The translations under genes and the position numbers were made by a program. DNA of 64,000 nucleotides from a virus: positions 38,474 through 102,473 of the IMG/VR virus record IMGVR_UViG_3300012954_000009; one strand, given 5' to 3'. A model generated the notes under the pieces. The model did not search any database and was not told the origin of the DNA. It saw only the letters and a list, made by a program, of their open reading frames with translations. Shown here piece after piece: positions 2 to 23,406 of this stretch; position 1 is the first letter of the stretch, and each line of letters opens with the position of its first letter.

Positions 2-2491
2 TAAATCTTTTGATTGTTGTATAGTAAAAAGTCCACGGTATGTTTCTATAAATCTATTAAAGTTAAGAACATAACCAATATACTCTGGTTTACCAAAGTT
101 TGCAGGATCTTGTATATACTCAGAAAACTTTCTTGTTTGTTTTAAACCATCTCGTAGTAGTCTAGTATATAATGTACTTCTAGCTTTAGGGCCTTCTTCT
201 TTAGCAACAGCAATAGCTGCAAGTGTGTGTTGTATATTTTCTTTAGTTGCTTTAGCAGTCCTATCCATGAAAATGCTACTTTCTATTTTATCAATAGCAT
301 CCTCTTTTTTAATTAGTGCAATCTCATATGAATCTAATGCACCGCTTATTGTTGCATACTCTGTAAGACCGTTAGCATCTAATGTATCTTCTGACATCTG
401 ATCAACTGGATCTAGTATATCATCAGGTGTTATTCTTGCATCATCTGATAACTCATCTGCTGCATCTATTTGATCCTTGGCAACTGGGTCTACAAATGAT
501 GGTATTAACGTGTTTACCATGTTAATGTTTTGGCTGACAGGATGAGGCATCCAAGTGTCAAACTCAAAATCACCATTAAACTTTTGCTTCTTTCCTTTAC
601 CGGTTATATCAACCTTTATATGAAATGTAGAAGTAGAGAACTCACTCTGGTCAACTTCATAACCCATATTCTCTAGCATTCTTCTGTATAGATTTACTTG
701 GAGATTATGTTGTTGTCTTGTAGATAGTCTGTCTACACCTTTTTGTTTTAAGAAACTATCATTCTTGAGATCCCAACCTTCATCATACTCTTCATTATTT
801 CTAACAAAGTTTTTACTAGTCTTTAAATCTATAACTCTTAAAGCACCACTGCGTGTTACAATAACTAAATCAGCTGTACCAGCAATCCCGGTCTCTTTAT
901 CATAAAGAACAACTTGAGGTATTGCTATTGCACCATCTGTTGTAAGCATTCTTACATTAGCCTCCATAGTTTTGTAGGCTGCTTCTGCTTTAACAGGGTC
1001 TAAGAATTTAATATTATCTTTTATTTCGTCAAAAGTTTTGTCAGATACAATAGCATCTAATATCATATCAAACTCATTACCAATATCTAAGTTAAGCTGA
1101 TTCTCTGCTTGTTGCTTTGGAGTCATCTTACCTTTGATAACTTGAGTGGCTGACAAATAATCTTTACCGTTAACTATATCTAGGTATGTATGGTCTTTCT
1201 CATTTAGAACTACAAGCGTATCTGCACCTTCTTTTGCACTGGCAGATAGTGTATCAACCTCTTGATCAGAAGTCTGTGCTAAGTTAAATAACCTCTTTAT
1301 TACTTCTTCTTGTTTTGAGTTTACAGCTTGTCCTAAAGCATAATCTATAATGGATTGCTTCTCTGGAGTAAGATTATATCTAACCTTTGTATCAGCTACT
1401 CTTTCTAATTTAAACTCTATGTCTGAAGTATTAAGAAGTCTTGCAATATCAGATAGTTTGGCATTAGTAGTTAAAGATGATGCTTTAAATTGTAATGGAC
1501 GCCCTGTTAAATACTGACTAAAGTTTTTAATTATCTCAGAAAACCACTGTAAAAATTGTTTTATAACATCTTTGAATGATCTTGTTGGATTTGTTTCATA
1601 CTCATTATTAAAATGTCTAGACAGTGCTTGAGTAACAAGTTCTAGGTTTCTATGTCTTTGATTAAAACCTCTAGCGTCTGTATAGGAGTCTTCTATTTCT
1701 TGATTTAATACAGGAAAGTTTTGTTTAGCTTCTGCTAGTAATTTGTTAAACAATTCTGTATTATCTACAAGTAACCCATCTACAAATGGGTGTAGTATTT
1801 CTTCTATTGCTGTTTCATTGCTTACTCTTCCTTTTATTAAGACAGCATTGCCATTTACATAGAAAGATCTAATCTTATCAAAAGGCACCTTAGCTTTTTG
1901 TGATTCAGGTAAAGAATCATAGTACCGCTTTGCTTGAGCAACTGTGACAACCTCAACATTAATCTGCGGGAATATATTTGCTAAGTGTTGTACTAATTGT
2001 ACAGAGTGTGTAGATTTATTATTTGTTGTAGCATCAATTAGATCTTTAGGAGTAAATACATTTTGCTTAACTATTACTTCAAAAGCTTTTTCTGTTCTCC
2101 TAAATGTTACAGCTTCTTCAGGTATATTATTTATCCTTAAATATCTTTTAGTAAGAGTTAGATTCTTCTGTAATACTGATTCATTGTATGTCCAAGTGTT
2201 TTGATCCCATGTTGTTCTCTCTGAGTTATTAATATAGAACCTACCTTTGTACATGCTACCATAACCAAGCCTACTAAGATTACCTAATAAAGCATCACCA
2301 AACTCTCTTCTTTTCAAAGAAAACAAAGCTTGTTGATCTTTCTTAAGCTGCATTGCTTGTTGTAGTGTTGGCAACTCTTCTGATCTGTTTAGCTTCTGCC
2401 AAGTATTAATAACATTTTCTGTTTTAAGATCAGTTTTAAATTGTTGCTTTAATGCTTGAAACTCACTTGTATTTCTATTTATACACGCCAT
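2..2491 (-). CDS. Giant virion cargo protein, partial (runs off left edge); degenerate zincin-like domain plus PD-(D/E)xK nuclease domain
   Basis: Missing from the ORF track because there is no stop in the window. Hand translation gives 830 open codons from ATG at 2491 (MACINRNTSEF...). Motifs: AIEEILHPF (~1788-1810) and PQVVLYDKETGIAGTADLVIVTRSGALRVIDLKTSK...QHNLQVNLYRRML (~670-920). It follows the vRNAP, as giant cargo genes do in crAss-like phages. Confidence 0.85.
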   Translation of the reverse strand, partial: MACINRNTSEFQALKQQFKTDLKTENVINTWQKLNRSEELPTLQQAMQLKKDQQALFSLKRREFGDALLGNLSRLGYGSMYKGRFYINNSERTTWDQNTWTYNESVLQKNLTLTKRYLRINNIPEEAVTFRRTEKAFEVIVKQNVFTPKDLIDATTNNKSTHSVQLVQHLANIFPQINVEVVTVAQAKRYYDSLPESQKAKVPFDKIRSFYVNGNAVLIKGRVSNETAIEEILHPFVDGLLVDNTELFNKLLAEAKQNFPVLNQEIEDSYTDARGFNQRHRNLELVTQALSRHFNNEYETNPTRSFKDVIKQFLQWFSEIIKNFSQYLTGRPLQFKASSLTTNAKLSDIARLLNTSDIEFKLERVADTKVRYNLTPEKQSIIDYALGQAVNSKQEEVIKRLFNLAQTSDQEVDTLSASAKEGADTLVVLNEKDHTYLDIVNGKDYLSATQVIKGKMTPKQQAENQLNLDIGNEFDMILDAIVSDKTFDEIKDNIKFLDPVKAEAAYKTMEANVRMLTTDGAIAIPQVVLYDKETGIAGTADLVIVTRSGALRVIDLKTSKNFVRNNEEYDEGWDLKNDSFLKQKGVDRLSTRQQHNLQVNLYRRMLENMGYEVDQSEFSTSTFHIKVDITGKGKKQKFNGDFEFDTWMPHPVSQNINMVNTLIPSFVDPVAKDQIDAADELSDDARITPDDILDPVDQMSEDTLDANGLTEYATISGALDSYEIALIKKEDAIDKIESSIFMDRTAKATKENIQHTLAAIAVAKEEGPKARSTLYTRLLRDGLKQTRKFSEYIQDPANFGKPEYIGYVLNFNRFIETYRGLFTIQQSKDL

Positions 2492-2493
2492 AC

Positions 2494-5400
2494 TTATATA
2501 TTATAACATTCTTTTAATTTGTCTAAGAACTCTTGCTCACTTGCATATGTACCTGTCTCATACTCATTTATAAAGTCCTCTAAGCTATTTATACCATTCT
2601 CTGCTAAGGTAGCTTTTTTCTTGCTATCTTGTTGTATATTATCATCCCAATATTCAGTAAGCTCAGGATTTGTAGTTTCATTTGTACTACTTGAAGTGTT
2701 ACCTAATAAAGCAGCTATTGCTTGATTATCATTTTGTATATCATCTTCTGTAACTTCTCTTTCTACAAGCTCAGCTTGTGGTACTTCACCAACTGTAGTA
2801 TTCTTACCATCATACTCTACTGGTGCACCTTGTGCAATTTTTTGTGCACTATCTGTTGGTCCATCACCAATATTAATCTTATCAATCTCATCTAGCACAT
2901 CTCCATAATTATCTGCAGTATCCTGACCAGTTGTATTACGTACATACTTTCTAACTTCTATCATAGTTGGTCTTTCACCAAACATAAACCCTATTGGATT
3001 TTGTGAATCTGATCCCATTGGCTCTACCTCAACATATTCAGCATAGTTTCCACTAACTAAGTTAGCTGCTGTTATAGGTTGTGGATTTACACTTTGTACT
3101 TTTGATAACTCAAAGTATCTATATCTTGGTTGATCCTGAGTTCCAACATTTACTTTAATTACATAAGGTAATAATGCTTCCATATAACTTCTATCCCCAG
3201 ACTTCTCAAGAGTAGTTGATATATTCTTTCTGGCTAGTGTATTCTCAGCATTACCACTCTTAGAATTACTAGGTTTTCTTACTGACAAGAAATCGTCTGA
3301 CTGAGTTATCCTTTGCCCTGGATATACATTAACTATTAACTTTGATGTCTCTGTTGTTTCATCTATGTATGCTACTTGTTTATTTGCATTTTGAGAACTC
3401 TTACTAACAGCCTTCTTGCCATCTGCAATATTATAACCAAACCTATTATTTAAACTATCCTTAATATACTTAAATACCTCTGGACTATTCTTCTGTAAAG
3501 CTTTTAGTTCTGACCTTGGTATTAAATACTTAGGGAACTTAACATTTTCATACTGACCTATTAAACTATCTAATGCATCCAGTTGAGCTTCAAAGTTTGC
3601 AACAAAAGTATCTAGCTCTTCATTTGTATAGTAGTTAGACTCAATATCAGCTAGTCCTTTCTTATATATAACTCCAAAACTATTACCATTGTCTCTAACA
3701 GAACGGTTGCCATCTTTTCCTAAAGCAGAAGCATTATCACCAAACACATACAATGTATTCTCATTAATACTTACAGTATGTGGTTTATAAGGTGAACTTT
3801 GGATTTCTATCTTTGTTGGATTAGGATTATATGTTGCAATATTATATGTGTTTCTTAAGTCTCTTCTATTACTAGCACTAGTTAAGTAACCCTTTAAGAA
3901 GTCTTCTACAAGATCATTATAGTTCATTCCAAATGTAGACTCAAAGAATCTATTACTACCATCTCTTAGTGCTGATTCTACATTATTTACTTGCTCTAAA
4001 TAAGTGTCATAAGTAAATGGTGTGACTGCATCAAGTAATGATTGATAGCCGTATCTAAAACCATCCTTAACCATCATGTAGTGTATAATTTTTACAGCAT
4101 CATTTCTGGTCTCTAGATTACCATACAATCTTGCAAATGATGATTGCAAGTTTACTTTTTGACTATCACTAATTCTATTAAAAGTATTTGCTGCTGCTTT
4201 ATCAATACCATCTTTATTTCCTTCTTGATTTGCATTCTCTAATATTACAAAACTGTCTAAGAAGAAATTATTATTATCTATACTTCTAAGTCTTTCTACT
4301 ACATCTGTAATTTTCTCACCCTCTAATTGTGGATATATTAAACTATTGCTCAATGATCCGGCTTTTACAGGATCATTATCCACTAATTTTTTATCATAAG
4401 CTTTAATGGTAAGGTATGCTAATATATCTATCCTAATGTTTTCCTTAACTTCATCAGTAAGCATTCTGCTGTTCATATTAGTCATAACCTTATTATAAAG
4501 ATCTTTGAACAGCGGTGTTTGAGTTAAGAATACTTTTGGTAATATCTTAGATTCAATCTCATTAAATATTTTTATGTATTGACCTTGCCATGTATTCTTA
4601 AACATAGGTCGTACATCAATCAATGGTTGCTTGGCAGCAATTCTTTTTTCTCTATAGACTTTGTATGCTTTATCAGATAAACCAATACCTAAGTCTTTTA
4701 GATCTTGCTTTCTAGAAGCTATATCTGTAACTGTTGCACCAAGACCATTAGTAAGATTCATAACAGAACTTAGTTTTCCAAGATAAGTCTTAATACTATG
4801 TGCTGTTTGAAATTGTTTCAGTGTTGAGTATTCTTTTATTGCTTGATCTCTTGTAAACTCATCATCTTTTACTTTCTTTGCTAACCCAGCTTTTGACATA
4901 CTAATCTTATAGTTAGCATCAATCTCATCTATAAGTAATGCATCTGTTACCTCTACCTCTGAAAGATCACCAAACTCTTCTTCAAGATTTGCAAGCCTTT
5001 CTCTCACAAGTGTTGCAATACCAGCATCAAATTGATCATCTTTATTTGTGGCTTGATAGTAAAGTTGTCTTAGTGATGGGTGGTTTATTAATAATATAGA
5101 TGTCTTGATAGGTACACCTAATGCTGTCATTGAAGCAACAGTTGCTAATGCATCTCTATTTAAACCTAACTTACCTGACAATCTTAACTTTCCGTTATCA
5201 GTCATTGCTGTAATAAGAGCAGATAAAACATATTGGTTTCTATAATTACCATTGCTATCTTGTGTTTCTGAAAAACTATTATATTCTTTACCTCCTAATT
5301 CAAGTTGTGTAGTTGTACGTTGTTTACCCGCTGTAATTTGCTCTATAGTAATACCATACTCCTGTAGCAAGTTCAAGTATAAGTTAGGTAATACTACAGC

Positions 5401-8400
5401 ACCAATAGATTTAGCTCCTGCTTTATTTGCTTCAAAGCTTAATAGTTGACCTAATGGGCTATCAACATCTATATCCTCATTATCTAGCATTTGCTTGAAG
5501 TAAGGAACTTCTGCTGCTAACTCCTGTAACAAGTCTTCAAGAGGCTGTGTAACTGCAGGTTGATAAGTAATAGGAACATCCTCACCAGGTGTATTAGTAA
5601 CATGCTCATTACCCATTAAGGTAGACTTATAATCAACAATCTCATTGCTTATTGCTTCTATATATGGTTCATGCCCTGTCTTTTCTTTATACTCTGTGTA
5701 TTGTTCAAATGTTATAGGTAATCCTAAAGCACTTAATGCTTTCATTGCATCCTCATTAAAACCTGCATCTGATCCTTGATCAAAGTCCACAGTAACTTCA
5801 GCACCGCTATTTCTAAATTTAAGTAATGCTTCATTTATACCAGTGCCTGGTTTTTTAACAGAGTTGTTTATTGCTCTTATATAATCTGAATACTTACCAT
5901 CTTCTGTCTTAGCTTTTCCATACTCAAAGAACTCACCATCTTCTTCATAAAAGTCTTTTGATTGTACATATACCTTATCAATATCAAAGTCAGCACCTGA
6001 TATCTCAATCAACTCTCTAGCAAACACTGCACTAGAACCATAGTATGTTGGCATAAAGTCAACCATTCTAATGTTTACTGTAGAGTGATTATCCTGTGAT
6101 GGTATTCTAACACCAAACATTTTACTTACAGCTTCTGGCATAGCTTTATCAGTGTCTTTGATAAGATTACCTACATCTGCATGATGCGCTGGCATAATAG
6201 ATTCTGTATATCTTTCTTGTTGATATTGACCTTGATCATTATAAACCTTCATGTTAGATCTTAAACGGTCTATTATAACAACACCTTCTGATCCTGCATT
6301 TTCTACAAGTCCTGCAAGACCATCAAGATTTTTATCATTACCTTCTTGGTATCCGCCTTCATCAATGTTTGCTACAATCTCTGGCTTTGATCCCATTCTT
6401 TCCCAAACATCTTCTCTTATAACCTCATGCTTATCTGGCATTCCGTTTTCATCTACTGAAAGAACTCTTCTATATATTCTTACACCATAGTCAGACACTA
6501 GAGCTAATGACATACCTGTAGTCTTTTCTGCAAGTACACCCTTAGAAAAGAATGAAAGGAATAACTCTTCAAACTTCTTAACTGTTTGCGGGTTATTTAA
6601 GTTATACTTTTGTTGTCCTGTTTCATCAAGTGAGAACATTTCAAGTGTATTACTTGTAGCATTAGATGCTTCTAAACTTGATTGTGCATACTTAAGATAT
6701 ATATAGAGATCTGGTTTGATTTCACCTTCAGCAATACTTTCTTTTAATAATTCATTTGCATATTCAATATCAAAATTAAATAAGGAGTTTCTTCTATTTA
6801 GGTACTTGAGAGTTACTCTATCACTAACAGCTTTATTATAGTTTTCTCTTATCTTACCAACAGTAGTCTTCTCACCATTTAAAATTACAGGAGTATTATC
6901 GTTCTGCTCAGATGTTACAAGAGTTTTAACCTGTGTAGGATCTGTAACTAAAAGCTTATTAGATGGATTTACTGTCTGTAGACCCATAAAGTTTGCATCA
7001 AGAACCATAGATTGGTCTTCTTTAAACGCATTTGTATTATCTAATTCTGATAGTGGATTAACATTCTCCTTCAGCATCTTAAGTGCTGATACAGGTGCAG
7101 CTAAGGCAATAGTTTCTTTACCTTTCTCAAACTCCTCCAACTTAACTCTTAAGTTATGTAGTCTTACTTTATTTGCTTTTGGTTCTGTAAATCCAGATTC
7201 TTTTGTTGATGTATATTCAGGAGTTAAAACAAAAGCTGACATCTTAACAAAAGTTTTACCATCAGCATAGACAAACTTCTTAGAGTTTATCATTTCACTT
7301 GCTTTAGCATAGCTTTCATTTGTCTGATCAGCATTTCCAACTAACTCTTCATATGCTATATCTTCTCCTTTTTCAATTCTATTTAATAAGTCTGCTTGCT
7401 TAGCACTTAGCTTACCAAGACCAAACCACATATATCTAAACGCCTTGGTTGTCATCCAAAGTTGTGCATCAGCATTATCAGTCTTACCATCATTAAATGT
7501 ATTATCTACACTTGGTTCTGTAAAAGCAAATAGATTCATCTTTTGCAGAGGATGATTGATACCATACTCTTCTGCTTTTATTATTGATGCAACACTATCG
7601 TATGCTGCATTCTGTGCCTTAGCTCTTTTGACCTCATCAGTAGGATCTTTAAGAGTCATAGCAACATCACCTAGTAATACTTTATTTAACTCAGAAGCAT
7701 TAATCCAGTTGTTAAAGAAAATCTGCCTTAAGTTGTAGTTAATATCATCTGTTAAATTTAACAACCTATTAGACAGTCTAACTTCTGGAGTTACTGATCC
7801 ATTTGCATTTTGCAATCCGTTTCTAATATATGTACTAAGATCTGATTCATTAGCAACAGAGTCTAGCTTTCTTCTAAAGTTGAGATACTCTTGCTCTAAT
7901 CTATCTCTTAAGAAGTTGTCAAATGCAGCTTGATCACCTATAGCATCTTCAAATGATATGTCTTCTCCATTTCTGTAAGCTTCATTAATCTTAGACTCTA
8001 GGTAAGTTTCATAGTTATTAATAACTTCTGATGCACCATCTGTATCTTCTGTAGCATTGTCTTCTGTTCTAACCACTTCATATAGGAACATTTCTTTTGT
8101 ACCCTTTAAGAACTGTCTCATGTCACCAGACTCAACCCAGTATTGTGCCTCACCTATACGTACAGGATTTGTGTGCGTATCTGTCTTTTCATTGCTAACA
8201 GCTGCACCAAGTAGATTAATTATTCTATCTCTGTTTTCTGAGTTAACTCTCGTCTTACCTAAACTCTTTATAGGGCCTTCAAAACTATTTGTTGCTTTAT
8301 CAAACTGCTGGATTAATACATTACGTACTTCGTTGTCAGCAGTAAACTTAATAACATTTTTTGCATTCTTTTCATTATATACAAATGCATTCTGATCACC

Positions 8401-11400
8401 CTCTTTAATTCTATTTACCTGTACTTCTGAAGTTTTAGCTCTTACAGTTTTAGTAAAAGTATCTGTTTCCTTTGCTTCTCTAAGTATATAACCAGTCTTT
8501 GTAAACTTAATATTTCTCTTCTTACCACTATTATAGTCTACTATGTTTCTTTCAGTTGCTGTATCAGGATTTGTTTCTTTTTTTATTCTTTCAAACTCTG
8601 CTTTAATTTGATTTTTAAATACATTAAGAGCTTGATCAGTCAATACTATTTCACCTTTCTTATTTTCAACAGCTTTGATGATTGGAAGTTTTGCCATATC
8701 ACCAGTATTAGAAGCCTCAATAACTCTTATCAATACAGGAGCTAAAGCTGTTTCTACAAGCTCACCTGTCACAGGATCTTCTGTAATAATTACTTGATCC
8801 ATTCTACCTGTATTATTTCTAAATAAATAAGTATATGAGTTAACTAAGTTTGTAATAAAATCCTTTGGAGTAAAGTCACCATACGTTGTACCTGTACTTC
8901 TTGATTCATCTACACCATCTTCTGTAATATCTATGTTACCTGTTTTACCACCTGATATTCTAGTAATCCCTATCATACCAGCAGAAGCCATGCTTATAAA
9001 CGCATCATTATTTAGTAACCAGTTATTAATTAAGAAGTCATCATCCTTTGTTTTAAGATCTTCTAACAGCTCAGGATTATTTAATGCAGCCATTCTTTTT
9101 AAATGATATGTAGGCTTTTGATGTGCGTATACTAAGTCACCGTTTGCATTTTTAAATACTGATGCACCAATTGTTTCATCAAATGGAGCGTTTGTCATAG
9201 ACATTTTTTTAAGCACTCCCTGCATACCTACCTCAGATGTACTAAATACATATACATTATTTTTTATGGTACCTTTTAAATTACTAAGGTCTTCTGAGTC
9301 TAATGGTTCTGCGTTTTGATAAGCATCTAATAGTAGTTTTTCATCTGCAGAAAGATTCTCAGGTTTTACTCTTTGTAGTATGCTATACTTAATAAATGTA
9401 GGACTTATAGTAATACCAACTGTTCTAGATAAGTTCTTTGATAGTCTTGTAAATAGATCATTACCGTTCTCATCTTCCTTATACATATTCTCTTTAGTCT
9501 TTTTACCTAAAGGTTTATTTGGTGAAACTGCACTCTGTAAAACATTTAGTACGCTAACAGCTTCATCTCTTGCTGTTTTATCTACTGATAAACTATTTCT
9601 GTAAAGGAAGCTATAAGCTTGACCCCACTTATCTATCTGTGAACTTGCATCATCTCTATTTGCTGCAGAATACGTTAATACTCTTCCGTTCTTATTTCTA
9701 TGTATAAAGATGTAGTCAACTCTAAAGTTTTCCATACCCTTGATAAGAGCATTAAAAAACAGAGGATTCTCAACACCTTCTGTCCATTGATTATTATTTA
9801 TTTTATCCTGAGTGATCCCAAGGTCATTAAAAAATCTATTAACAACAGCTCCTGTTTGTGGATTTGTTTGACCAAATACATATAACTGTTTTAGTATTTG
9901 TGTTGGATCTGTGGTATTCTTTACAGCTTTTAGCATACCATTATATACTTCTGCAAAATCTACAGGAACAATAAGTTTTTCTCCAGGTGTTAATTCTGTA
10001 TTTCCAAAGATGTCTTGCTGTTCTAGCGTAGTAGTCATTATATAACGTCTAAGCTTTGCAGATAAAGAATTAAATCCACCAATTAATGATGCATCTACAT
10101 CCCAATTATCAACGTTTCTTAAACCTTGACTATCTTCTTTTTGCTCTGCCACAAATATTTGATCTTCTAAATTTATATCTACAAGATTTAAAAACTTAGA
10201 TACAGAGTTTTTAATTTCTTCAGGGAAGTTTTCTAATGCATCACTATAGTCATTCATTAGTAGTAGCCTCTCGGTAGTTTGATTTTCATTAGCAGGACTA
10301 CCTACATCATATAGCTTTTTAAAATCTTTTAAGACATCATCTAATAACTCTTCTCTTGTTATATTTGCATTAGTATTAGCCTCTTCTCTTTGTATATAAA
10401 TAGCAGCCATGCTTCTGACCATTGCATTAGCATTGTCAGAATCTAAATATTGAAAACCAACCTTATCTCCTACCTCTATCTTTTCAAAAGGCACTAGAGC
10501 ATTTGCTTCTATTGTTAACCCCTGTAACGCAGCTTGTGTAAAGCGGTTTTCAACCGGTTGTGCTGACTTATACTTACCAGAATCAATATTTTTAAATAGC
10601 TCTGTAAGCTCATTCTTACTGTATACACCCAGTACAGATTTAATCCATTCAAGGATTCTAGTGAATAAAGACTTAACCTCACTACTTGTGTTAGTGTCTT
10701 TTGGGCTCGTCTTGAATTTCTCAAATTCATCTGCCAAATACTCTTCATAATACTCTTCTATCAAACGTGCTTCTGACATATTCTGATATGTGTCAGCAGA
10801 GTTTCTAAATTTATTTAATTCTTCTTTAAAGTTTTTACCCTCAGCTCTTAGCTTAGCTCTTACTTCTCTTCTTGCTATACCTAGATATTTAGTTATCTCT
10901 TGATCAGTAAGTAGCATTCTAAATACACCGTGGAATGCTTCATGATATTTAAATGGGCTTGTTGCTCCTGTATATATAGTACCTTTAACATTAAGACCAC
11001 CAGCTAAACTGTTAAGACCTAAAACAAATGCACCAACTCTAACACCACCTGCTTTCTGATTATTAGCTAATGTTCTTATATCTTGTACAGTAATATATGC
11101 TGGTAAGTTAGCAATAGCCCACGCTTCAAACTCATCTATACTTGTAACATCTGTAACTGATAGCTCAGGACTTATTACTTTATTAGCAATAAGATTATTT
11201 AATTCTGCATTTAATCTTTTTAATTCAGCATCTTGTTTAAGTGCTTTCTTTAAATTCTTTAATTGCTTTGCAGCTTTTAACTCTTCTGTAATCTGAGCTT
11301 TTCTAGCTTTAATATCTTCTTTTAACTTAGCTTTTTGAATTTCTAAATTAGCTTGTGGATTATTAGAAGCAAGTTCTTTAATCTTTTTGTTAACCTGTGC

Positions 11401-14400
11401 TGTTTTATCAGACATTATTGCAGTCTCTCTATCTGATAAAGTTTCTCCTGTCATTACTTTTCTTGCAATGTTCTCTATTCTTTCATTGCTAACTTTACCA
11501 TTATCAATAAAGGCTTGATACTCTTGATCAGAAATTTGTCCAATAGGTGCATCTTCTTCACTCATTTGAGCAACCATGTCTTCTAGAGTCCTAGTATTCT
11601 GTTTTTCTTGCTCAGTCTTTTTCTCTTCTACGTTAGCTGCATCTTCACTAGCTTGCATGCTAGCAGAATCTTGCGTAAGATCCAATCTTATATTGCTTCT
11701 AACTCTACCATCTAGTGTTGTAGTAGTAAGGTCAACCAAGTTTCTAACACCTTTATCTGAAGAAGTAACAGGTATTTTCATATCAAAGCTCTCCTTCATA
11801 TTCTTTGTGGTGACTTTGATACCTTTTTCTTTGGCTACTTCTGTTTCATTCAATAAATCAAATAGTTCTGCTACATCCCCATAGCTTTCTGACTCTGCTA
11901 TTTTTGCTACACCCTCTTGAGATATTACAATAGGATTTGGTTTACCTTTTAGTTTACCCTTAGTGTGTAGTATAATAGGCTTACCCGTCTCTTTATCTAT
12001 AATATTTGCTTCTATTCTACCTCCTGGATCTACTCTTAACTGTATCTTATAACCAGGAATTGTAGAGATAAAAATATCTTTAGTAAAGTCTTCATTCCAT
12101 TTCTTATTATAAACTAAGTCTTTTCTTTTTGACTGGCTTACATTTTCTGGATCAGATAAGTTTTCTTGTCTTGTTTTAACTGCTCTATCTATAAGTTGCT
12201 TAAACTTGTCATTGACAGCTGCTGGTGTAAGTTCTGCTGGGTTTAGTTGTGCTAAAGTATAAACACCCATAGGAGACTTTATGATTGCAACATATGCTCC
12301 CATATTTCTTGCTGTCTTATATAATCCTTGTGATGTTAAATCTTGTTTTATTTTTTCTACAACTGCTGCCTCTTCTTCAGCATCTTCTATATTAGTCTTA
12401 AAGTCTTCCCTTCTTGTTACTTTTGTTTTACCATTCTCATCTACATCAGTCTGGTATCTGTTATCTAGAATAACAATATTACCATCAACAGTATAGTAGT
12501 CTAATTCCGTTAGAGACTTAGGTGCATCAAAGCTAAATGATCCTTCATTATATGTAAATCCAAAACCAGTACCTAAGAAATCACTAAGTTTTACAGTAAC
12601 TGTGCTATTCTTACCTAACTTCTTTTCAACAAACTCTAAGAAGTTAGCTGATATAGTAAAGTTATCTCTAATTTTAGAAAGTGCATTTACTTGATTACCA
12701 AAGAATGTATTTTGCGCAGTATCTTTATCTATTGTTCTAGGATCAATAGCTTGACCTTGTTTATTGTAAATAACAACATTGTCATTTGGTACATATCCAA
12801 ATATACCACTTGCACTATCAGACGGTTTAATACCTTTTGATTTTAAAATACTATTTATTTTTTTAGCAACTTTTGGGTTTCCTATCTTAAGAGCAATAGT
12901 ATATTTCTCTGACTTTCTCTTTATATATGGGTTTGAAGATTTACCTTCATATGCATAGTTCTCTCCTATAACCCCTCCATTAGGATTTACAGTTATAACT
13001 AGTTCTATAGTAGCTCTTTCTTCTGGAGTAAGCTCAGTCATAATCACATCATATCTTCTCTGAGCTTCTTCTCTTGATTCTCCTTTGTTTTGATGAGCAT
13101 ATGTTTTAGTTGGTTCACTAATTTGTAATCTACTTACATCAGTTGGTACCGTGCTAAAGTCTAGTGTATCTATTATTGTATATGCATTAGCAAACTCACC
13201 CGGTTTGATTACTTTTGTAGCATCTTTTCTTTCTTGACCTTTTGTATCTACTTTATCAACAGGAAGCAAGGAAAGATTTCCAAACTTTTCTAGAGATGTA
13301 GGAGATGTAGTTACTATAAATTTGTTACCGTCTGCATCTTCTACTTCTGTACCATATGATAACATTATATCATTTCCGTTTACATCTTTATCAAATGCAA
13401 ACGTATCTGATGTAGGTACTTTTTCTGCTAAAGTATTTAAACCTTTTACTGCTGCCCCTACTTTGCTATATACTCCATTTGGTGTTAATTCAGCTGCTTG
13501 TAAAAGTTCTTCTGATACATCTTTATTATCAACAGTTCTAATTTGCCAGTACTTTGTGGCATCTCCTGAGTCTGGATCTATAGTAGAAAACTCTACAACA
13601 ACATAACCACCTCTTGGTTTTCCAATAACTTTACCACCATACTCTACTTCTTGAACACCGTCTCCTAAATCTTCTGCTTGTTCTACTGTATAGAAGTCAT
13701 TGTATGTCAATCCACCTGCCTCAAGAATATCTTTTACATCTGGATTTGTTTCTTGATTTACTAACCATGATGTAAAACCTTGATCAGTATTATAGGCTTC
13801 CATTAGATCTTTCTGTGATTTATACTCTTCTTTTAAACCACCTTTGTCATACCAATACTTTTTAAGAGCTTCATAAGCTTTTACTGCCAACACAGCTTCT
13901 TGTGAATTTAACCAAGCTGCTTGACTCTTAGCTTTCTTACCAAGAGATTGCTGATCTCTCTTATGCTTTCTATATAATTTATTTAGCAGTGCTTTAATTG
14001 TAGGATTCTGTGTAGTATCAGTACCAAACGTTTGACTTTCTGGAGCATTTATTTCTGCATTATCTAACACACTATCAATCTTATCCTCTGACTCTTTAGT
14101 TTCTTTAGCTCTTGTTTCTGCAGCTTGTGGATCTTGTTGTACATCTTCTGTATCAGATATGTCCATACTATCATTATAATTATCAATGGCTGCACGGACT
14201 TTTAGATATAAATCTTTATCCATTTTAGGATCAACAACACCTTGTTCATTAAAGAATAATTGTAGGTATCTTGCATCTCCTGTTTTTAGGAACATCTCAG
14301 CTTGATCAGCATCAGGGTATACACCTAAATCATTTAATTTATTGAGTAATAAATTTGCTTCAATCTTGTTAATATACTTCTTTACTCTCTTTTCAAAATC

Positions 14401-17325
14401 AGTCTTGTTCTTTTTAAATAGCTCTTTGTTGATAGCATACTGTCTCGCAACAATTTTATCTAATTGTTCAGGATTGCTTAAATATTGTATTGCTTTATCA
14501 TATGTTTTTGCTCTACCTTTTAGTGCTTTGTAGTCTACAATTTTCTTCAATACCTCATCTATTCTTGCATTATCTACAAACCCATCTTTACTCTCTGCTA
14601 GGAACTGGACATAGTTTTGAAATACACTTCTTACTTTACCTATCTTTCTTCTATCAAAAGAACCATCTTTAGTAAGATTCTTTGGATCATTTAATATTTT
14701 TCTAATAGCATCTAAACGTTTTGCTTTGTCTACTAGTTTTTTCTTCTGTTCTTTATTTCCTTCTATGTCATCTAGAACTGCAGCTTCAGTCATTAAAGTC
14801 TGAATCTCTTTTGTAAGAGTGTCCTTATCTAATAACACTGTTAAATCAGAAGCCTCTAACTTTGATAAGATAGGATCTGCAGCTAGTTCATTATATATTT
14901 TATTTGATCTTTCAAGTGCTCTGTTGAAACCATCTTCAGTAAACATTTGCAAGAACCTAGCATGTTCAAATGCTATTTCTTTTAATGCCTCATCATTATA
15001 CTCTCTTGTTCCTTTTTCAAACTTACTTCTATCAAAAGGATTTACATACTTATCTTTATTTCTATTATATCTATCTTCATAAGTATCTATCTGACCAAGC
15101 ATGTCTGTTATCCTTTCTCTAAGCTTACCTGATTTAATTTCTTTTTTAGATGCAGGAAATGCTTCTGATAGTTCTTGATCTGTCAAGTTTAAAAAGTCTT
15201 GAAGTTGGTTTCTAAATAAACCTGCTGTTCCATTTTGGAATATGGTGTGATACTGATGAAACTTACCAAAGTCTTTTGCATCTGTAAAACCAAATTGATC
15301 TTGGTCATATAGATTTTTCTTCATTTCATTTGCAACTTCTTTTTGCACCATGAAGTTCATCTTCTGTGGATCAAATAATGCGCTAGGATCTTCTGCTTGT
15401 TTATTCCATGCTTCATTATGTGTGTCTACAAGAGACTTAATAAAATTTTCTCTCTTCTGTTTTATATCAGCCATACCTTTAGGATCAGTAACCCTTTGGT
15501 ACACATAAGGTAAAGCTTGGAAATATAGCTTTTGCGGTCCTTGCACAATACCACCCATCAAGAAACCAGACATAAATGTTTCAAAACCTTGTGCACTAAA
15601 CTGACTACCAACTGCTGATGCAACAACATTACTATGTAGATCAATACCTCCTTGCGTTGGATCATTCAATACTGCAGAATAGTAGTCTTTAGTTCCTTTT
15701 GATATAGCTTCTTGAGCAACTTCTTGAATACCCTCCGCAAGATTTTGTGAAAAGTATCTTAGACTGGCACCAGCCGCCATAGACAGTGATCCTTTTACAC
15801 CTGCAGCTTTTAATCTATTAAAATAACCTTTGATTCCCGTTCCTGCATCTTTAAATACATTCTTTGCAATTTTACCATCAGCACCAATTGTCTTAGTTCC
15901 TTGTATAATTCTTCTACCAAATCCCGTTATTCTATCATTCATTAATCTACCAAGTGACTTATTAAAACCACCCATTGCATTACCTAAGACAAACTGATTT
16001 GATAAGTATATAAGAGGAGCATTCCTCATGATTGTTCCAAATGCTGCTTTCTCTGCATTCTCAGCAATACCTTCCATTTGTTCAGGTGATATATTCTCAT
16101 TACCACTCTTGGCTCTTTCTATAAGCATACCATTAGATATCTGCTGTTGGTACACCATACCCCCTTCAAGTTTAGACTCAGCCATAGCAAGGTTTAGTGA
16201 TCTTGCATCTCTATAGAATCCTCCCATAAATTTACTGGCCTTAGCCATATTGGTAAGATTCTGAGCACCATTCTTAGCTGTATGTAAACCTTTAACAGCA
16301 GCCATAGTCTCAGGAACAAACAATGTACCTATTGCACCCCACTCACCAGCTTTAGTTGCTTTCCAAAAATCTCTTGCTTTATCAACATTATTTATCGTCT
16401 TAAGCATATTCCTTGTAGCCTTAGCCATTCTAGTAATAGCAAAACTATTTGCAATAGCTTTTCCAATTCTACCAAAATTCCACGCTGTTCTTGCAGCTGC
16501 CGGTCCTCCTGCAGCACCACCTGTAGCTAATGTTGCACCTGCTAATAATAATTCTTCTACTGCAATAGATGATATAATACCTACAGTATATCCACTATTT
16601 AAAAGCATGTTATTTGCAAAGCCACCAAAACCACCTCTAGAAGACATACCTATAGCCATTGCATCCTCAAACTCTCCAGCTGTTTTAAGATCTGGTGCAC
16701 TAAAATAAGGGTCTGCATCAAATAAGTCACCTACAGATCTATATACACTTGTAAATCCAGAACCTACAAGTCTTCCAAATTGACCCCACATTCTAGACAT
16801 ATCATCATATATATCTGAATTAGCATTATAAAATTCTTCATTATTTGCATATGGATGAAAACCTAATTCAGCAAACTTAGGATGCTCGTAATATCTATCA
16901 AAACCAGATGCTTTTCTACTAGCATATATAGGATCTTCTATAAAAGGTTTTTCTGGACCTAAATCAACTCTGCCTGGATTGTCTATTAAGTTCTGTAGAT
17001 TACGCATAACACCCTCTTCAGTACTTATATCAGCGGGAAGTTGTTGTAATCTTGGATTGTACTGACCTACACTATTTTCAGGATAAGGTGTATTCATATT
17101 AGCCAATGAAGTTGGTGCATAACTATTTATGACCGGCTTATAAGAGTCCAGCATTTTTACATAGTCAGCATCTAAGCTTGGATCAAACTCTTCTGTATTA
17201 GGTCCTTCCCACCACTGATCTGTAGGTATAAACTCAAATCTATCAGTAGGAACCGATGCAGGTACTGTACTAGCACCTAGCCCTGCTGATTCAGCATTTA
17301 TTTTTGGTTCATTTGGTAAGCTCAT
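2494..17325 (-). CDS. Virion-packaged RNA polymerase polyprotein (crAss-like two-barrel vRNAP) fused to an N-terminal ejection/membrane region and a zincin metallopeptidase domain
   Basis: 4943 aa. Catalytic loop SGADFDIDK (~5977-5991) preceded by RIPSQ, the DFDID signature of phi14:2/crAss vRNAPs. HEAFH zincin motif (~10930-10944) with downstream EEYLADEF. Gly/Ala-rich hydrophobic N-terminal segments. Confidence 0.92.
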   Translation of the reverse strand: MSLPNEPKINAESAGLGASTVPASVPTDRFEFIPTDQWWEGPNTEEFDPSLDADYVKMLDSYKPVINSYAPTSLANMNTPYPENSVGQYNPRLQQLPADISTEEGVMRNLQNLIDNPGRVDLGPEKPFIEDPIYASRKASGFDRYYEHPKFAELGFHPYANNEEFYNANSDIYDDMSRMWGQFGRLVGSGFTSVYRSVGDLFDADPYFSAPDLKTAGEFEDAMAIGMSSRGGFGGFANNMLLNSGYTVGIISSIAVEELLLAGATLATGGAAGGPAAARTAWNFGRIGKAIANSFAITRMAKATRNMLKTINNVDKARDFWKATKAGEWGAIGTLFVPETMAAVKGLHTAKNGAQNLTNMAKASKFMGGFYRDARSLNLAMAESKLEGGMVYQQQISNGMLIERAKSGNENISPEQMEGIAENAEKAAFGTIMRNAPLIYLSNQFVLGNAMGGFNKSLGRLMNDRITGFGRRIIQGTKTIGADGKIAKNVFKDAGTGIKGYFNRLKAAGVKGSLSMAAGASLRYFSQNLAEGIQEVAQEAISKGTKDYYSAVLNDPTQGGIDLHSNVVASAVGSQFSAQGFETFMSGFLMGGIVQGPQKLYFQALPYVYQRVTDPKGMADIKQKRENFIKSLVDTHNEAWNKQAEDPSALFDPQKMNFMVQKEVANEMKKNLYDQDQFGFTDAKDFGKFHQYHTIFQNGTAGLFRNQLQDFLNLTDQELSEAFPASKKEIKSGKLRERITDMLGQIDTYEDRYNRNKDKYVNPFDRSKFEKGTREYNDEALKEIAFEHARFLQMFTEDGFNRALERSNKIYNELAADPILSKLEASDLTVLLDKDTLTKEIQTLMTEAAVLDDIEGNKEQKKKLVDKAKRLDAIRKILNDPKNLTKDGSFDRRKIGKVRSVFQNYVQFLAESKDGFVDNARIDEVLKKIVDYKALKGRAKTYDKAIQYLSNPEQLDKIVARQYAINKELFKKNKTDFEKRVKKYINKIEANLLLNKLNDLGVYPDADQAEMFLKTGDARYLQLFFNEQGVVDPKMDKDLYLKVRAAIDNYNDSMDISDTEDVQQDPQAAETRAKETKESEDKIDSVLDNAEINAPESQTFGTDTTQNPTIKALLNKLYRKHKRDQQSLGKKAKSQAAWLNSQEAVLAVKAYEALKKYWYDKGGLKEEYKSQKDLMEAYNTDQGFTSWLVNQETNPDVKDILEAGGLTYNDFYTVEQAEDLGDGVQEVEYGGKVIGKPRGGYVVVEFSTIDPDSGDATKYWQIRTVDNKDVSEELLQAAELTPNGVYSKVGAAVKGLNTLAEKVPTSDTFAFDKDVNGNDIMLSYGTEVEDADGNKFIVTTSPTSLEKFGNLSLLPVDKVDTKGQERKDATKVIKPGEFANAYTIIDTLDFSTVPTDVSRLQISEPTKTYAHQNKGESREEAQRRYDVIMTELTPEERATIELVITVNPNGGVIGENYAYEGKSSNPYIKRKSEKYTIALKIGNPKVAKKINSILKSKGIKPSDSASGIFGYVPNDNVVIYNKQGQAIDPRTIDKDTAQNTFFGNQVNALSKIRDNFTISANFLEFVEKKLGKNSTVTVKLSDFLGTGFGFTYNEGSFSFDAPKSLTELDYYTVDGNIVILDNRYQTDVDENGKTKVTRREDFKTNIEDAEEEAAVVEKIKQDLTSQGLYKTARNMGAYVAIIKSPMGVYTLAQLNPAELTPAAVNDKFKQLIDRAVKTRQENLSDPENVSQSKRKDLVYNKKWNEDFTKDIFISTIPGYKIQLRVDPGGRIEANIIDKETGKPIILHTKGKLKGKPNPIVISQEGVAKIAESESYGDVAELFDLLNETEVAKEKGIKVTTKNMKESFDMKIPVTSSDKGVRNLVDLTTTTLDGRVRSNIRLDLTQDSASMQASEDAANVEEKKTEQEKQNTRTLEDMVAQMSEEDAPIGQISDQEYQAFIDNGKVSNERIENIARKVMTGETLSDRETAIMSDKTAQVNKKIKELASNNPQANLEIQKAKLKEDIKARKAQITEELKAAKQLKNLKKALKQDAELKRLNAELNNLIANKVISPELSVTDVTSIDEFEAWAIANLPAYITVQDIRTLANNQKAGGVRVGAFVLGLNSLAGGLNVKGTIYTGATSPFKYHEAFHGVFRMLLTDQEITKYLGIARREVRAKLRAEGKNFKEELNKFRNSADTYQNMSEARLIEEYYEEYLADEFEKFKTSPKDTNTSSEVKSLFTRILEWIKSVLGVYSKNELTELFKNIDSGKYKSAQPVENRFTQAALQGLTIEANALVPFEKIEVGDKVGFQYLDSDNANAMVRSMAAIYIQREEANTNANITREELLDDVLKDFKKLYDVGSPANENQTTERLLLMNDYSDALENFPEEIKNSVSKFLNLVDINLEDQIFVAEQKEDSQGLRNVDNWDVDASLIGGFNSLSAKLRRYIMTTTLEQQDIFGNTELTPGEKLIVPVDFAEVYNGMLKAVKNTTDPTQILKQLYVFGQTNPQTGAVVNRFFNDLGITQDKINNNQWTEGVENPLFFNALIKGMENFRVDYIFIHRNKNGRVLTYSAANRDDASSQIDKWGQAYSFLYRNSLSVDKTARDEAVSVLNVLQSAVSPNKPLGKKTKENMYKEDENGNDLFTRLSKNLSRTVGITISPTFIKYSILQRVKPENLSADEKLLLDAYQNAEPLDSEDLSNLKGTIKNNVYVFSTSEVGMQGVLKKMSMTNAPFDETIGASVFKNANGDLVYAHQKPTYHLKRMAALNNPELLEDLKTKDDDFLINNWLLNNDAFISMASAGMIGITRISGGKTGNIDITEDGVDESRSTGTTYGDFTPKDFITNLVNSYTYLFRNNTGRMDQVIITEDPVTGELVETALAPVLIRVIEASNTGDMAKLPIIKAVENKKGEIVLTDQALNVFKNQIKAEFERIKKETNPDTATERNIVDYNSGKKRNIKFTKTGYILREAKETDTFTKTVRAKTSEVQVNRIKEGDQNAFVYNEKNAKNVIKFTADNEVRNVLIQQFDKATNSFEGPIKSLGKTRVNSENRDRIINLLGAAVSNEKTDTHTNPVRIGEAQYWVESGDMRQFLKGTKEMFLYEVVRTEDNATEDTDGASEVINNYETYLESKINEAYRNGEDISFEDAIGDQAAFDNFLRDRLEQEYLNFRRKLDSVANESDLSTYIRNGLQNANGSVTPEVRLSNRLLNLTDDINYNLRQIFFNNWINASELNKVLLGDVAMTLKDPTDEVKRAKAQNAAYDSVASIIKAEEYGINHPLQKMNLFAFTEPSVDNTFNDGKTDNADAQLWMTTKAFRYMWFGLGKLSAKQADLLNRIEKGEDIAYEELVGNADQTNESYAKASEMINSKKFVYADGKTFVKMSAFVLTPEYTSTKESGFTEPKANKVRLHNLRVKLEEFEKGKETIALAAPVSALKMLKENVNPLSELDNTNAFKEDQSMVLDANFMGLQTVNPSNKLLVTDPTQVKTLVTSEQNDNTPVILNGEKTTVGKIRENYNKAVSDRVTLKYLNRRNSLFNFDIEYANELLKESIAEGEIKPDLYIYLKYAQSSLEASNATSNTLEMFSLDETGQQKYNLNNPQTVKKFEELFLSFFSKGVLAEKTTGMSLALVSDYGVRIYRRVLSVDENGMPDKHEVIREDVWERMGSKPEIVANIDEGGYQEGNDKNLDGLAGLVENAGSEGVVIIDRLRSNMKVYNDQGQYQQERYTESIMPAHHADVGNLIKDTDKAMPEAVSKMFGVRIPSQDNHSTVNIRMVDFMPTYYGSSAVFARELIEISGADFDIDKVYVQSKDFYEEDGEFFEYGKAKTEDGKYSDYIRAINNSVKKPGTGINEALLKFRNSGAEVTVDFDQGSDAGFNEDAMKALSALGLPITFEQYTEYKEKTGHEPYIEAISNEIVDYKSTLMGNEHVTNTPGEDVPITYQPAVTQPLEDLLQELAAEVPYFKQMLDNEDIDVDSPLGQLLSFEANKAGAKSIGAVVLPNLYLNLLQEYGITIEQITAGKQRTTTQLELGGKEYNSFSETQDSNGNYRNQYVLSALITAMTDNGKLRLSGKLGLNRDALATVASMTALGVPIKTSILLINHPSLRQLYYQATNKDDQFDAGIATLVRERLANLEEEFGDLSEVEVTDALLIDEIDANYKISMSKAGLAKKVKDDEFTRDQAIKEYSTLKQFQTAHSIKTYLGKLSSVMNLTNGLGATVTDIASRKQDLKDLGIGLSDKAYKVYREKRIAAKQPLIDVRPMFKNTWQGQYIKIFNEIESKILPKVFLTQTPLFKDLYNKVMTNMNSRMLTDEVKENIRIDILAYLTIKAYDKKLVDNDPVKAGSLSNSLIYPQLEGEKITDVVERLRSIDNNNFFLDSFVILENANQEGNKDGIDKAAANTFNRISDSQKVNLQSSFARLYGNLETRNDAVKIIHYMMVKDGFRYGYQSLLDAVTPFTYDTYLEQVNNVESALRDGSNRFFESTFGMNYNDLVEDFLKGYLTSASNRRDLRNTYNIATYNPNPTKIEIQSSPYKPHTVSINENTLYVFGDNASALGKDGNRSVRDNGNSFGVIYKKGLADIESNYYTNEELDTFVANFEAQLDALDSLIGQYENVKFPKYLIPRSELKALQKNSPEVFKYIKDSLNNRFGYNIADGKKAVSKSSQNANKQVAYIDETTETSKLIVNVYPGQRITQSDDFLSVRKPSNSKSGNAENTLARKNISTTLEKSGDRSYMEALLPYVIKVNVGTQDQPRYRYFELSKVQSVNPQPITAANLVSGNYAEYVEVEPMGSDSQNPIGFMFGERPTMIEVRKYVRNTTGQDTADNYGDVLDEIDKINIGDGPTDSAQKIAQGAPVEYDGKNTTVGEVPQAELVEREVTEDDIQNDNQAIAALLGNTSSSTNETTNPELTEYWDDNIQQDSKKKATLAENGINSLEDFINEYETGTYASEQEFLDKLKECYNI

Positions 17326-17330
17326 ATTAT

Positions 17331-20300
17331 TTATTTTGTACCGTTTTGTTTTGCATCTGCATCATACAGAGTGTTATTAGAGTTCATTTTATCTTCAAGA
17401 GTTATCTCAAAATATTTAACAGCATTATCTAAATGACTTTCTACTGTTCCGCCTTTATATGTACTAGCTATCCATTCATTTAAATTAAATGCTGGTGTTG
17501 CTATATCTACAAAATTACCTTCTTCTGAAGGTTTATATTGTTTGTAAGTAATCTGTGCCATATGTGCTCCATTAACATCTTGAAATACTTGAATTGAACC
17601 TCCGTTTGTAACCGAGTTAAAATATTGTTTATTATCAGAAGTGTTTATTTTATCTTGTACATATGAATAATTATACATACCATCTCTTCTTATACTTATA
17701 TCCATTTCTTTATCAAACGCAAATGTTAATGTACTATATGATGCTAAGTCTGCATTACTTATCATTGCAGGATTAGTTCCTGTTGTTTTACCTGCTTTAA
17801 TCAAAGGTAGTGTTTTTTTAACCCATTCCTGATCAAAATTAATAACATATGCTGCATGAGTCTTATCACCAACCTCTGGGTTACCATATACATTATTATA
17901 GGTTATTGTTGCTTGTGGTCTACCCGTTTGTGGTTGATCTGGATTTTGACTCCAAGATTTCATATCTCTAATGTATGATCTAAATAAGTCCATTGCTATT
18001 GTATTACTTACAGCATTAAAGTCTGCTCTAGTATTTCTACCCATATCACCAGGCTGTATAGTCATCTTTTGAGTAGGAGTCTCATTAAATTGAGTAATTA
18101 TATCCATAACTATTGATGCACCGTTTGCATCCTGATTAATCATTGCAGGATCTATATCAATATCATATTGAGGATTAATTATTAAATCACCTACACTGCC
18201 TAAATATTCTCTACCACGCATAAACTGTGTAAAATTAAATGTGGTAAAGTCATCAGTTGGGTTACCACTTACAGTAACTTGTTCTGGTGTACCGCCTTTA
18301 GTCAAAACTTCTGTAATATCTGGTGCTATAATTGAACCCTGTGATTTATTTAATGCACCATACATTAAATCATAAAGCATTGATGCATCTTTTTTAGCCT
18401 CATCTGTCATAAAGTATTTCTCTGTACCCGCTAATATTTTGGTACCATCTTTTATACTACCACTTCCATAGTATACATTTCTTTCACCAATATAGTTTTC
18501 ATCATGCCCTGAATCAGGACCAAACCAAGTATGTTGTGACCACCATCCTCGGTTACCATCAGTAAGTTTCTTTTGTCTAGCAAGGGTTACATATTCATTT
18601 ACAAACTCCTCTTTAGTTTTTAAATGATGGTTGCCATCACCTAAGTTAGTAAATAAGAAGTCTAATGGAAGTGCACCACTACCGTCTTTATTTAATGTAC
18701 CCTTATCAGGGTTTGTAAACTCTTTAACTTCACTGCTACCTTCAAATAAATCACCAGCTGCTGCCATCAAGTTATACTGATTAAAGTAGTGATTATGCAA
18801 TCTCTGATTACCTTCAATTAGTTTTGCTTCATATTGATTTACATTTTCAAACTGAGATTTAAGTTTTAGATAATCAATTCTTTTTGCTCTAGCTACTGCA
18901 TCAGATGGATCTGCATCTACTGCTGTATTATCATAAGCTAAATGCGGATACTTTTCAGCTAAAGCATTTTGATTTTCACTATTTGGTACTAGTATGCTAT
19001 TAAACTCTGCATATATTCTATCTATATCACCTTTATATTTAAAAACACCATCCGCACTTGTATTTAATAATTGATAGAAATTCTGTCCATCTGTTGAATT
19101 GACGCCACCTATAGGTAATTTTTTCTCTTCACCATCAATTGTAAGTGTGTATAAATTATCTGTAACACCCGGTTGCATAGATCTAAGGGCTGTTGTAATA
19201 GCTTTTATTTTTTGTTCTGTATTTACATTATCAAACTCTGCAACTTTGTTTAAGTTATATTTTACAATATCATATTTTCCTTCTCCATCATCTACAAAGG
19301 TAATATTACCAGGACCACCAGGTTTAGCGTTTAATGATGAATTGCTTAAAACTCCCGGTTGATTCTTAGGATCTAATGATGCCTTTAATACTTCAAGATC
19401 AATTCTGTTTTGTTGTCTTATAGCTTCTAATGCTTTAGAATATTGAAACTTTCTTTGTCTACCATACTCTGGGTTTTCCATTTTAATAGTAGTAGAAGCG
19501 TTCATCTTACCAAAAGATCTAGCAGCAGCAATCATATCATCTTTGATATTAAACTGCATTTGCATATTATAAGCTCTATTAAGAAGATCTTGTGTAGATG
19601 AACTAGTAGTAGGCATAACTCCTTCAGAAATAATATTATTGCTAGTTTCTATTCCAGCCTTTAAAGACTGATATACTTCAAACTGTTGACGCATTTGTCT
19701 TTCCTGTACAGAACCAGCAACTATACCTTTTTGTTTTTTAAATAAATCCCAACTTGCATTACTATTTGTAGATTGATTTAACTCTGTTTGCTGATTGATT
19801 TTTCTTTCACCAGCCTGTGTAGTAAACTGATTTATTGTTTTAAGAGCCCATTGTCTTTGACCCTCTTGTACAGAGTTAACAGCACCTGAATCAATCATTT
19901 TTTGTGCCGTGTTTCTACCATCAACATAGCTCTGAGTAAAATAAGCTTGTTGTACTCTTGGGTCACCAGTCAAAGTTCTTTGTAGCATTTCTAAAGCCGG
20001 ACCTGTTACAAGATCACCGTTCTCTCTTGTAATAATCCATTGACCATCAGGACTTAATTCATCCATTTTTACATTTAAACCAGACTCTTTTAATACATCT
20101 AATGACATTTGATATAAGTTAGCATTAGGTATATACTTAGGTATAGCCATGTTTAGTGCATCATCTTTTGGTGCATTAACAAAATCTTGCATCTGGTAGT
20201 CCATTGCTTGTAGTCCTGTCTGCCACCACATCTGCCTTCTATCTTTATCAGGATCGTTCATCAATCTATTAGCATAAGCTCTTTCATTTTGATATGCTTT

Positions 20301-20636: not shown

Positions 20637-20647
20637 AATTTGTTTAT

Positions 20648-23404: not shown

Positions 23405-23406
23405 AA

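Follow-up and report, generated by a model that had tools for sequence, protein, structure and literature searches.

Crassviruses are the most abundant phages of the human gut. Three proteins of crAss001, gp47, gp50 and gp49, are virion cargo inside the capsid, and their partial unfolding is thought to be necessary for passage through the tail; it has yet to be explained how about 700 kDa of polymerase proteins leave the capsid and reassemble in the host (PMC10172136). The literature on phi14:2 gp66, whose structure was described by Drobysheva et al., shows that the fusion state of the three polymerase modules varies among crassviruses. Here we examine the junction between two consecutive giant genes in 64,000 nucleotides (nt) of viral DNA (IMG/VR record IMGVR_UViG_3300012954_000009, positions 38,474 to 102,473; hereafter the window), at which a protein of 4943 amino acids (aa), named V, is followed by a protein of 1881 aa in the full genome, named N, and each carries its only cysteine beside the end that faces the other.

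In the pre-ejectosome of cyanophage A4 (Anabaena phage A-4L), cryo-electron microscopy (cryo-EM) resolved a disulfide between gp27 Cys1715 and gp26 Cys5 (PNAS 2025, PMC12002296), which that paper treats as a local stabilising detail and not as a rule tracking gene splits. According to the A-4L genome sequence, Cys1715 is the sole cysteine among the 1717 residues of gp27 and Cys5 the sole cysteine among the 1114 of gp26, and the two genes are consecutive. V and N, known from sequence alone, share this arrangement of large proteins from consecutive genes with sole cysteines near the facing ends. Unlike the crAss modules, the A4 pair are two proteins of a T7-like pentameric core and not of a polymerase. 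Cysteine suppression in ejection proteins has been described for the N4-like phages (Schitoviridae gp50/gp71, gp51/72 and gp52/73; PMC11445570), and structural disulfides exist in crassvirus particles (PMC10172136).

Results

Cysteines at the junction of V and N

All large open reading frames (ORFs) of the window lie on the minus strand. V occupies 2494..17325 and contains one cysteine, Cys4940 (TGT codon at 2506..2508), the fourth residue from a C-terminus that reads KECYNI. A spacer of 2 nt (2492..2493) separates its stop codon (2494-2496) from the start codon of N, which begins MAC at 2491. The first 830 residues of N lie at 2..2491 and the ORF runs past the window start; the remainder was read from the whole genome of 102,473 bases (G000:C1 35319..40964). 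Cys3 (TGT codon at 2483..2485) is the sole cysteine both of the visible residues and of the full-length protein. An earlier note on this DNA had reported a single cysteine four residues from the end of V and an MAC start with no other cysteine in the visible part of N; the computed counts agree on both points and extend the second to all 1881 residues.

Upstream of V, three further ORFs of 1101, 918 and 1288 aa (17331..27273) contain no cysteine at all, and are probable further ejected cargo outside the cysteine-linked set. Across all five ORFs (10,131 residues) there are 2 cysteines, against about 168 expected from the 1.66% cysteine content of the other 20 ORFs of the window (Poisson P about 2e-69). 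If V and N are each allowed a single cysteine, random placement would put both within 5 residues of their common junction with a probability of about 3e-6. The depletion resembles that of the N4-like phages (PMC11445570), whose giant virion polymerase and co-ejected proteins are almost free of cysteine. However, the N4-type polymerase differs in being a single chain without any cysteine and without a conserved terminal pair.

Identity of V and N

V carries the DFDID catalytic motif of two-barrel RNA polymerases at residues 3779-3783 (5977..5991), identical to phi14:2 gp66 1361-DFDID-1365. The surrounding region aligns to crAss001 gp50, phi14:2 g066 and p-crAssphage gp44, and tblastn recovers 'putative RNA polymerase' genes of many crassviruses. 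By blastp, residues 1392-1496 of gp50 match V 3694-3792 (E 5e-13) and residues 1289-2008 of g066 match V 3715-4471 (E 7e-11). Nearer the N-terminus, V 1960-2256 (10558..11448) is similar to the C-terminal part of the separate M1 proteins, the match to crAss001 gp47 1993-2294 being weak but collinear (E 1e-4) and those to M1 of cr4_1 (E 2e-5) and cr1_1 (E 3e-4) likewise collinear. The summed lengths of gp47 and gp50 (2341 + 2412 aa) compare with the 4943 aa of V. N matches gp49 (796-1282 against N 1284-1808, E 4e-26), M3 of cr4_1 (E 6e-27) and phi14:2 g065 (E 1e-6), and also the C-terminal parts of M2M3 fusions annotated as 'catalytic subunit fused to RNAP subunit', such as p-crAssphage gp44 3794-4049 (E 2e-18).

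The DFDID match and the alignments to gp47, gp50/g066 and gp49/g065 thus identify V, as judged by homology, as a fusion of M1 (crAss001 gp47-like) with M2 (the gp50-like catalytic virion RNA polymerase), and N as M3 (gp49/gp65-like). The layout, M1M2 followed by M3, is that of the Suoliviridae cr4_1 and cr1_1. The fusion point lies near residue 2300 of V, just downstream of the segment that resembles separate M1 proteins, and cysteine is absent there. The earlier note had called V a virion RNA polymerase; this holds for its catalytic M2 part, but V also includes M1, which other crassviruses encode apart with a cysteine pair of its own at the split. Mass spectrometry places orthologues in virions for crAss001 (PMC10172136) and phi14:2 only, and V and N are most likely packed in the particle and injected into the host.

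More general searches returned little. When the junction region was compared with phage records by Megablast there was no match, nor did phmmer of V against PDB sequences give one, and neither V nor the three cysteine-free ORFs upstream matched a PHROG family. Phmmer of the reference modules against V likewise found nothing, whereas blastp matched.

The cysteine pair in relatives and across Crassvirales

A clade sample was drawn from IMG/VR at 30-60% identity: a query of the final 700 residues of V gave 21 loci, and the head of N as query added about 77. In all of these approximately 100 relatives, the upstream protein has one cysteine in 2,500-3,300 visible residues, located 2-5 residues from its end, and the downstream protein (about 1,900 residues) has one cysteine at position 3-5. 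The protein upstream of M1M2 fusions in relatives is free of cysteine, as it is in the window. The junctions themselves vary in cysteine offset, flanking residues, spacer (-1 to 24 nt) and relative reading frame. Because exact offset, spacer and frame all vary, what is conserved, on the comparison of these sequences, is a cysteine near each facing end, and selection is at the protein level.

The same holds well beyond this clade. In 17 reference crassviruses from four families, a cysteine pair marks each boundary at which modules are split into separate proteins. Phi14:2, crAss001 and Dulem virus 41 encode M1, M2 and M3 as three proteins; M1 is separate from an M2M3 fusion in p-crAssphage; and the window has M1M2 separate from M3. 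In phi14:2 the sole cysteine of g067 (M1, 1797 aa) is its last residue, g066 (M2, 2180 aa) has cysteines only at 3 and 2179, and the sole cysteine of g065 (M3, 1421 aa) is at 3. In crAss001 the M1 protein gp47 has its sole cysteine at 2339 of 2341, the M2 protein gp50 (2412 aa) has Cys5, Cys2404 and one internal cysteine, and the M3 protein gp49 has its sole cysteine at 5. Dulem virus 41 and cr116_1 repeat this three-part pattern. Where M2 and M3 are fused, as in Intestiviridae and Crevaviridae, M1 ends with a cysteine at -1 or -2 and the fusion starts with MSC, MAC or MNYC. The other compliant references are p-crAssphage, crAss002, cr107_1, cr3_1, cr110_1, Rudgehvirus, cr127_1, cr4_1 and cr1_1. 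Fused module junctions have no cysteine pair, including the M1M2 junction of the window, and no terminal cysteine is ever present at the outer ends, where M1 begins and M3 finishes. V and N are therefore like phi14:2 g067-g066-g065 and crAss001 gp47-gp50-gp49 (PMC10172136) in being homologous proteins with DFDID and the terminal-cysteine rule; unlike those phages, the window has M1 and M2 as one gene, and so has one junction and one cysteine pair. Loss of the pair in homologues, which the earlier note had named as evidence against its proposal, is not seen: every relative examined retains the pair, which tracks the splitting and joining of these genes throughout Crassvirales.

The genes for crAss001 gp47 and gp50 are on opposite strands, yet the pair is kept, which excludes a nucleotide signal at the level of the junction. 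In crAss002 the gap between gp32 and gp33 (locus L108, 7985-8150) contains a G+C-rich inverted repeat followed by a run of T, resembling a terminator, so that the two cysteine-tipped partners may be separate transcription units in this phage.

Two annotated gene starts depart from the pattern. The M2M3 gene gp33 of crAss002 (L108, MN917146, 8151-8260) is annotated as starting 32 codons upstream of an in-frame M-S-C, and gp40 of cr110_1 (L118, NC_055879, 7689-7740) as starting 14 codons upstream of one. As relatives share that conserved start, the internal M-S-C is probably the true start of both genes and the annotated starts are probably wrong.

A blind survey of junctions

We also surveyed junctions by an IMG/VR search with the catalytic-motif alignment A3, giving 80 diverse loci and 100 non-redundant junctions. 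A junction was defined as the catalytic ORF together with an adjacent ORF of at least 300 aa, and the rule as a cysteine no more than 9 residues from both facing ends. The rule is obeyed at 88 of the 100 junctions. Half of the 12 that do not conform are an outer boundary, with a cysteine-free cargo protein beside an M1M2 fusion, as in the window; the remainder comprise one unrelated neighbouring gene, four frame breaks and one junction with a 32-residue extension after the cysteine. We count 11 of these 12 as explained. Among 121 distinct pairs, the C-terminal cysteine is 1-5 residues from the end in 118, and 112 have the N-terminal cysteine at position 3-5. In 88 of the 121 the second residue is Ala, Ser or Gly, so the initiator methionine is probably removed.

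Several candidate exceptions to the layouts were rejected. Three loci that appeared to be full fusions when TAG was translated as Gln (L143, L148 and L168) have a single in-frame TAG exactly at the cysteine-tipped junction, which is a stop codon. Apparent splits of V in L023, L035, L088, L092, L157, L160 and L167 have the look of frameshifts or misassemblies and not of protein ends. In L153, L160 and L122, extensions at the ends of catalytic or M1 ORFs include a shared motif, G-S-P-K-A-K-D-G followed by W-K/R-I/V-I/V-K-D and then K-G; the extension of L153 ends again with a cysteine, 10 residues before the stop.

Introns and homing endonucleases at apparent splits

An apparent IKMC end in cr116_1 was also rejected as a protein terminus: it arises when translation is continued into an intron that interrupts the DFDxD motif and harbours a LAGLIDADG gene. 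The insert (L115, MT774389, 14380-15260) is about 840 nt long, carries a LAGLIDADG-type ORF of 215 aa and lies exactly within DFDxD of the catalytic module; the record annotates two separate proteins. Because exon 1 ends in GSDFD and exon 2 resumes with VDKEY, the insert is probably a self-splicing intron in the active-site codons of the polymerase.

A different case is the contig of L007 (also recovered as L036 and L111), in which a GIY-YIG homing endonuclease gene (Pfam E 1e-8; 9300-10260) splits M3. The flanking ORFs end in KKCS and start with MSCK, their cysteine codons overlapping the start and stop codons of the endonuclease. Unsplit relatives (L112 and L113) have no cysteine at this site, and the new end peptides are not similar to native V and N ends (z below 1.5). 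An Rfam search of the insertion found no intron. These cysteine-tipped ends may be real protein ends or may be intron sequence, and they were not used as evidence for the rule.

The tail of V and the head of N

The last 59 aa of V (2497..2673; alignment A2) form a conserved C-terminal mini-domain (PEL, W-D-N-IQ, LEDFI and then EEFL/I, K and C in order), which comes after a variable acidic linker and carries the cysteine at its end. In A2, columns W200 and C247 are invariant, and D201, N203, L222 and D224 are nearly so. At the other side of the junction, a start of M-A-C or M-A-x-C is invariant in alignment A1 and across the relatives in the clade, and the cysteine sits before a conserved N-R/K-N-T-x-E-Y stretch.

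The N-terminal 300 residues of N (1592..2491) were modelled at moderate confidence (model m346c71a93712, pLDDT 78). Foldseek of this head gave no match at E of 0.001 or below, and only weak matches (E 0.04-1) to the anthrax lethal factor (LF) and PPEP proteases. VIA-align of residues 157-300 gave Z of 5.2-6.6 to YbeY, LF, PPEP and SprT-like folds, below the level that stands out. The HExxH zinc-binding motif is not intact in N, being replaced by a conserved EEILHP in which Glu stands in place of the first His. The predicted fold weakly suggests that residues about 157-300 are zincin-like, a likeness that agrees with, but does not prove, the zincin-like protease domain described in the literature for gp65 orthologues.

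Neighbouring genes

Just upstream of the cysteine-free block, a protein of 1563 aa (27319-32010, minus strand) has four cysteines arranged as two C-x4-C pairs (438/443 and 1035/1040); towards the C-terminus it has matches to PHROG families named 'lytic tail protein'. Further upstream, between 43042 and 49226 on the same strand, several virion-module ORFs are very rich in cysteine (3.7-7.1%), in sharp contrast to the cysteine-free cargo block; one ORF of 192 aa has 11 cysteines, 9 of them within its first 43 residues.

Discussion

A probable disulfide between V and N

We consider it probable that Cys4940 and Cys3 form an intermolecular disulfide in the virion which joins V and N end to end, and we infer the bond, its timing and its role in ejection from the comparisons above. 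The earlier note had proposed that the two giant proteins are linked end to start by a disulfide or a shared metal site, leave the capsid as one ordered chain and come apart in the reducing cytoplasm; of this proposal, a covalent link from tail to head is the part well supported by comparison, since the pair is kept in homologues and the same signature is a disulfide in the cryo-EM structure of A4. The bond would form once the particle reaches an oxidising environment, and tail-to-head joining would turn V and N into a single chain some 6,800 residues long, with only 2-3 residues overhanging at the joint. In this the disulfide would replace the peptide bond by which single-gene fusions connect the same modules. 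The polymerase modules would stay attached to one another and equal in number inside the capsid, and the link would probably persist while the proteins partly unfold and move down the tail channel, where a nearly linear joint could fit the narrow bore. In the host, the cytoplasm would then reduce it. Co-packaging, ordered ejection and reassembly are the candidate purposes of the link. Thioredoxin-family proteins are encoded in the early/replication module of several Intestiviridae (L107, BK010471 p-crAssphage, 22869-24136; L105, 29935-30210; L119, 14396-14665), and it is conceivable that these are linked to the reduction of the putative cargo disulfides.

Paired facing cysteines would fit any bridge of two thiols, and one possibility is that the termini are bridged by a metal ion (Zn or Fe) bound by both thiols together with side chains near them. 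The weakly zincin-like N-terminal part of N, with its conserved E, E, H and D residues, is in keeping with this idea. However, there is only one cysteine per side with no conserved His or Cys beside either, the offsets vary over 1-7 and 2-7 residues, which is easier to reconcile with a flexible disulfide than with a fixed site for a metal, and the A4 pair is a disulfide (PMC12002296); we regard a shared metal as unlikely. Scarcely different in probability, though a shade lower, is that each terminal cysteine bonds elsewhere, either with a second copy of the same protein or with a protein of the capsid or portal to which the cargo would be anchored. Crassvirus capsid, portal-vertex and tail proteins are indeed rich in cysteine and form disulfides, but such partners would not account for the strict complementarity, in which each C-terminal cysteine is matched by an N-terminal cysteine on the next module, a middle module has both, the outer ends have none and the pair is lost together at fusions.

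The thiols might instead serve a regulatory or catalytic function within each protein with no link between them, for instance as a 'cysteine switch' that keeps a zincin-like protease latent, given that a weakly zincin-like domain begins N and that orthologues are described with such a protease. This seems very unlikely, as M1-M2 junctions share the pair although the N-terminus of the catalytic M2 is no protease, a switch does not need a partner cysteine on the preceding protein, and the zinc-binding motif of N is broken (EEILH). Least credible of all is that the two codons, which are both TGT and lie within 26 nt, reflect chance or a signal in the nucleotide sequence where the genes meet (translational coupling or RNA structure). 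Among relatives the codon spacing ranges from 18 to 29 nt with differing frames and flanking codons, persistence of the pair in the non-adjacent genes of crAss001 refutes a signal, and a chance origin, at about 1e-6 to 4e-5 per genome, would have to recur in many lineages. All four explanations fit the complementary pattern less well than a disulfide does, or are excluded.

Several points weigh against the disulfide. The gut habitat of crassviruses is anaerobic and of low redox potential, so that disulfide formation is less assured. The A4 proteins gp26 and gp27 have no significant blastp similarity to the crAss modules (best E 0.1), and the A4 case is therefore analogous and not related. A few lineages (L122, L153 and L160) have 30-290 extra residues after the 'terminal' cysteine. 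Moreover, the literature suggests that fused polyproteins may be cleaved into their components, which would be odd beside a need for linkage. Lastly, there is no direct evidence of the bond in any crassvirus; crAss001 virions have been analysed by mass spectrometry with and without reduction, but the publication is silent on peptides with the terminal cysteines.

The crassvirus structure papers examined (including PMC10172136) make no mention of terminal cysteines and full-text literature searches returned none. We found no paper describing the terminal-cysteine rule for crassviruses, and this kind of link is known from one solved phage, A4. A broader and more speculative proposal, which we hold to be somewhat less than an even chance, is that throughout Crassvirales disulfides at cysteine-tipped ends act as substitute peptide bonds that rejoin split polymerase modules into a thread of 5,000-7,000 residues, that this is required for packaging in equal numbers and for ordered, head-first ejection, and that new splits (e.g. 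by homing endonucleases) would survive only with such a pair.

The rule is an aid to annotation, as it marks true start codons such as those of crAss002 gp33 and cr110_1 gp40, and helps to tell real protein-level splits from introns and frameshifts. If true, covalent end-to-end linkage would account for the cohesion and equal numbers of modules that are encoded apart, for the order in which they exit the capsid, and for the way the reducing cytoplasm of the host could release them.

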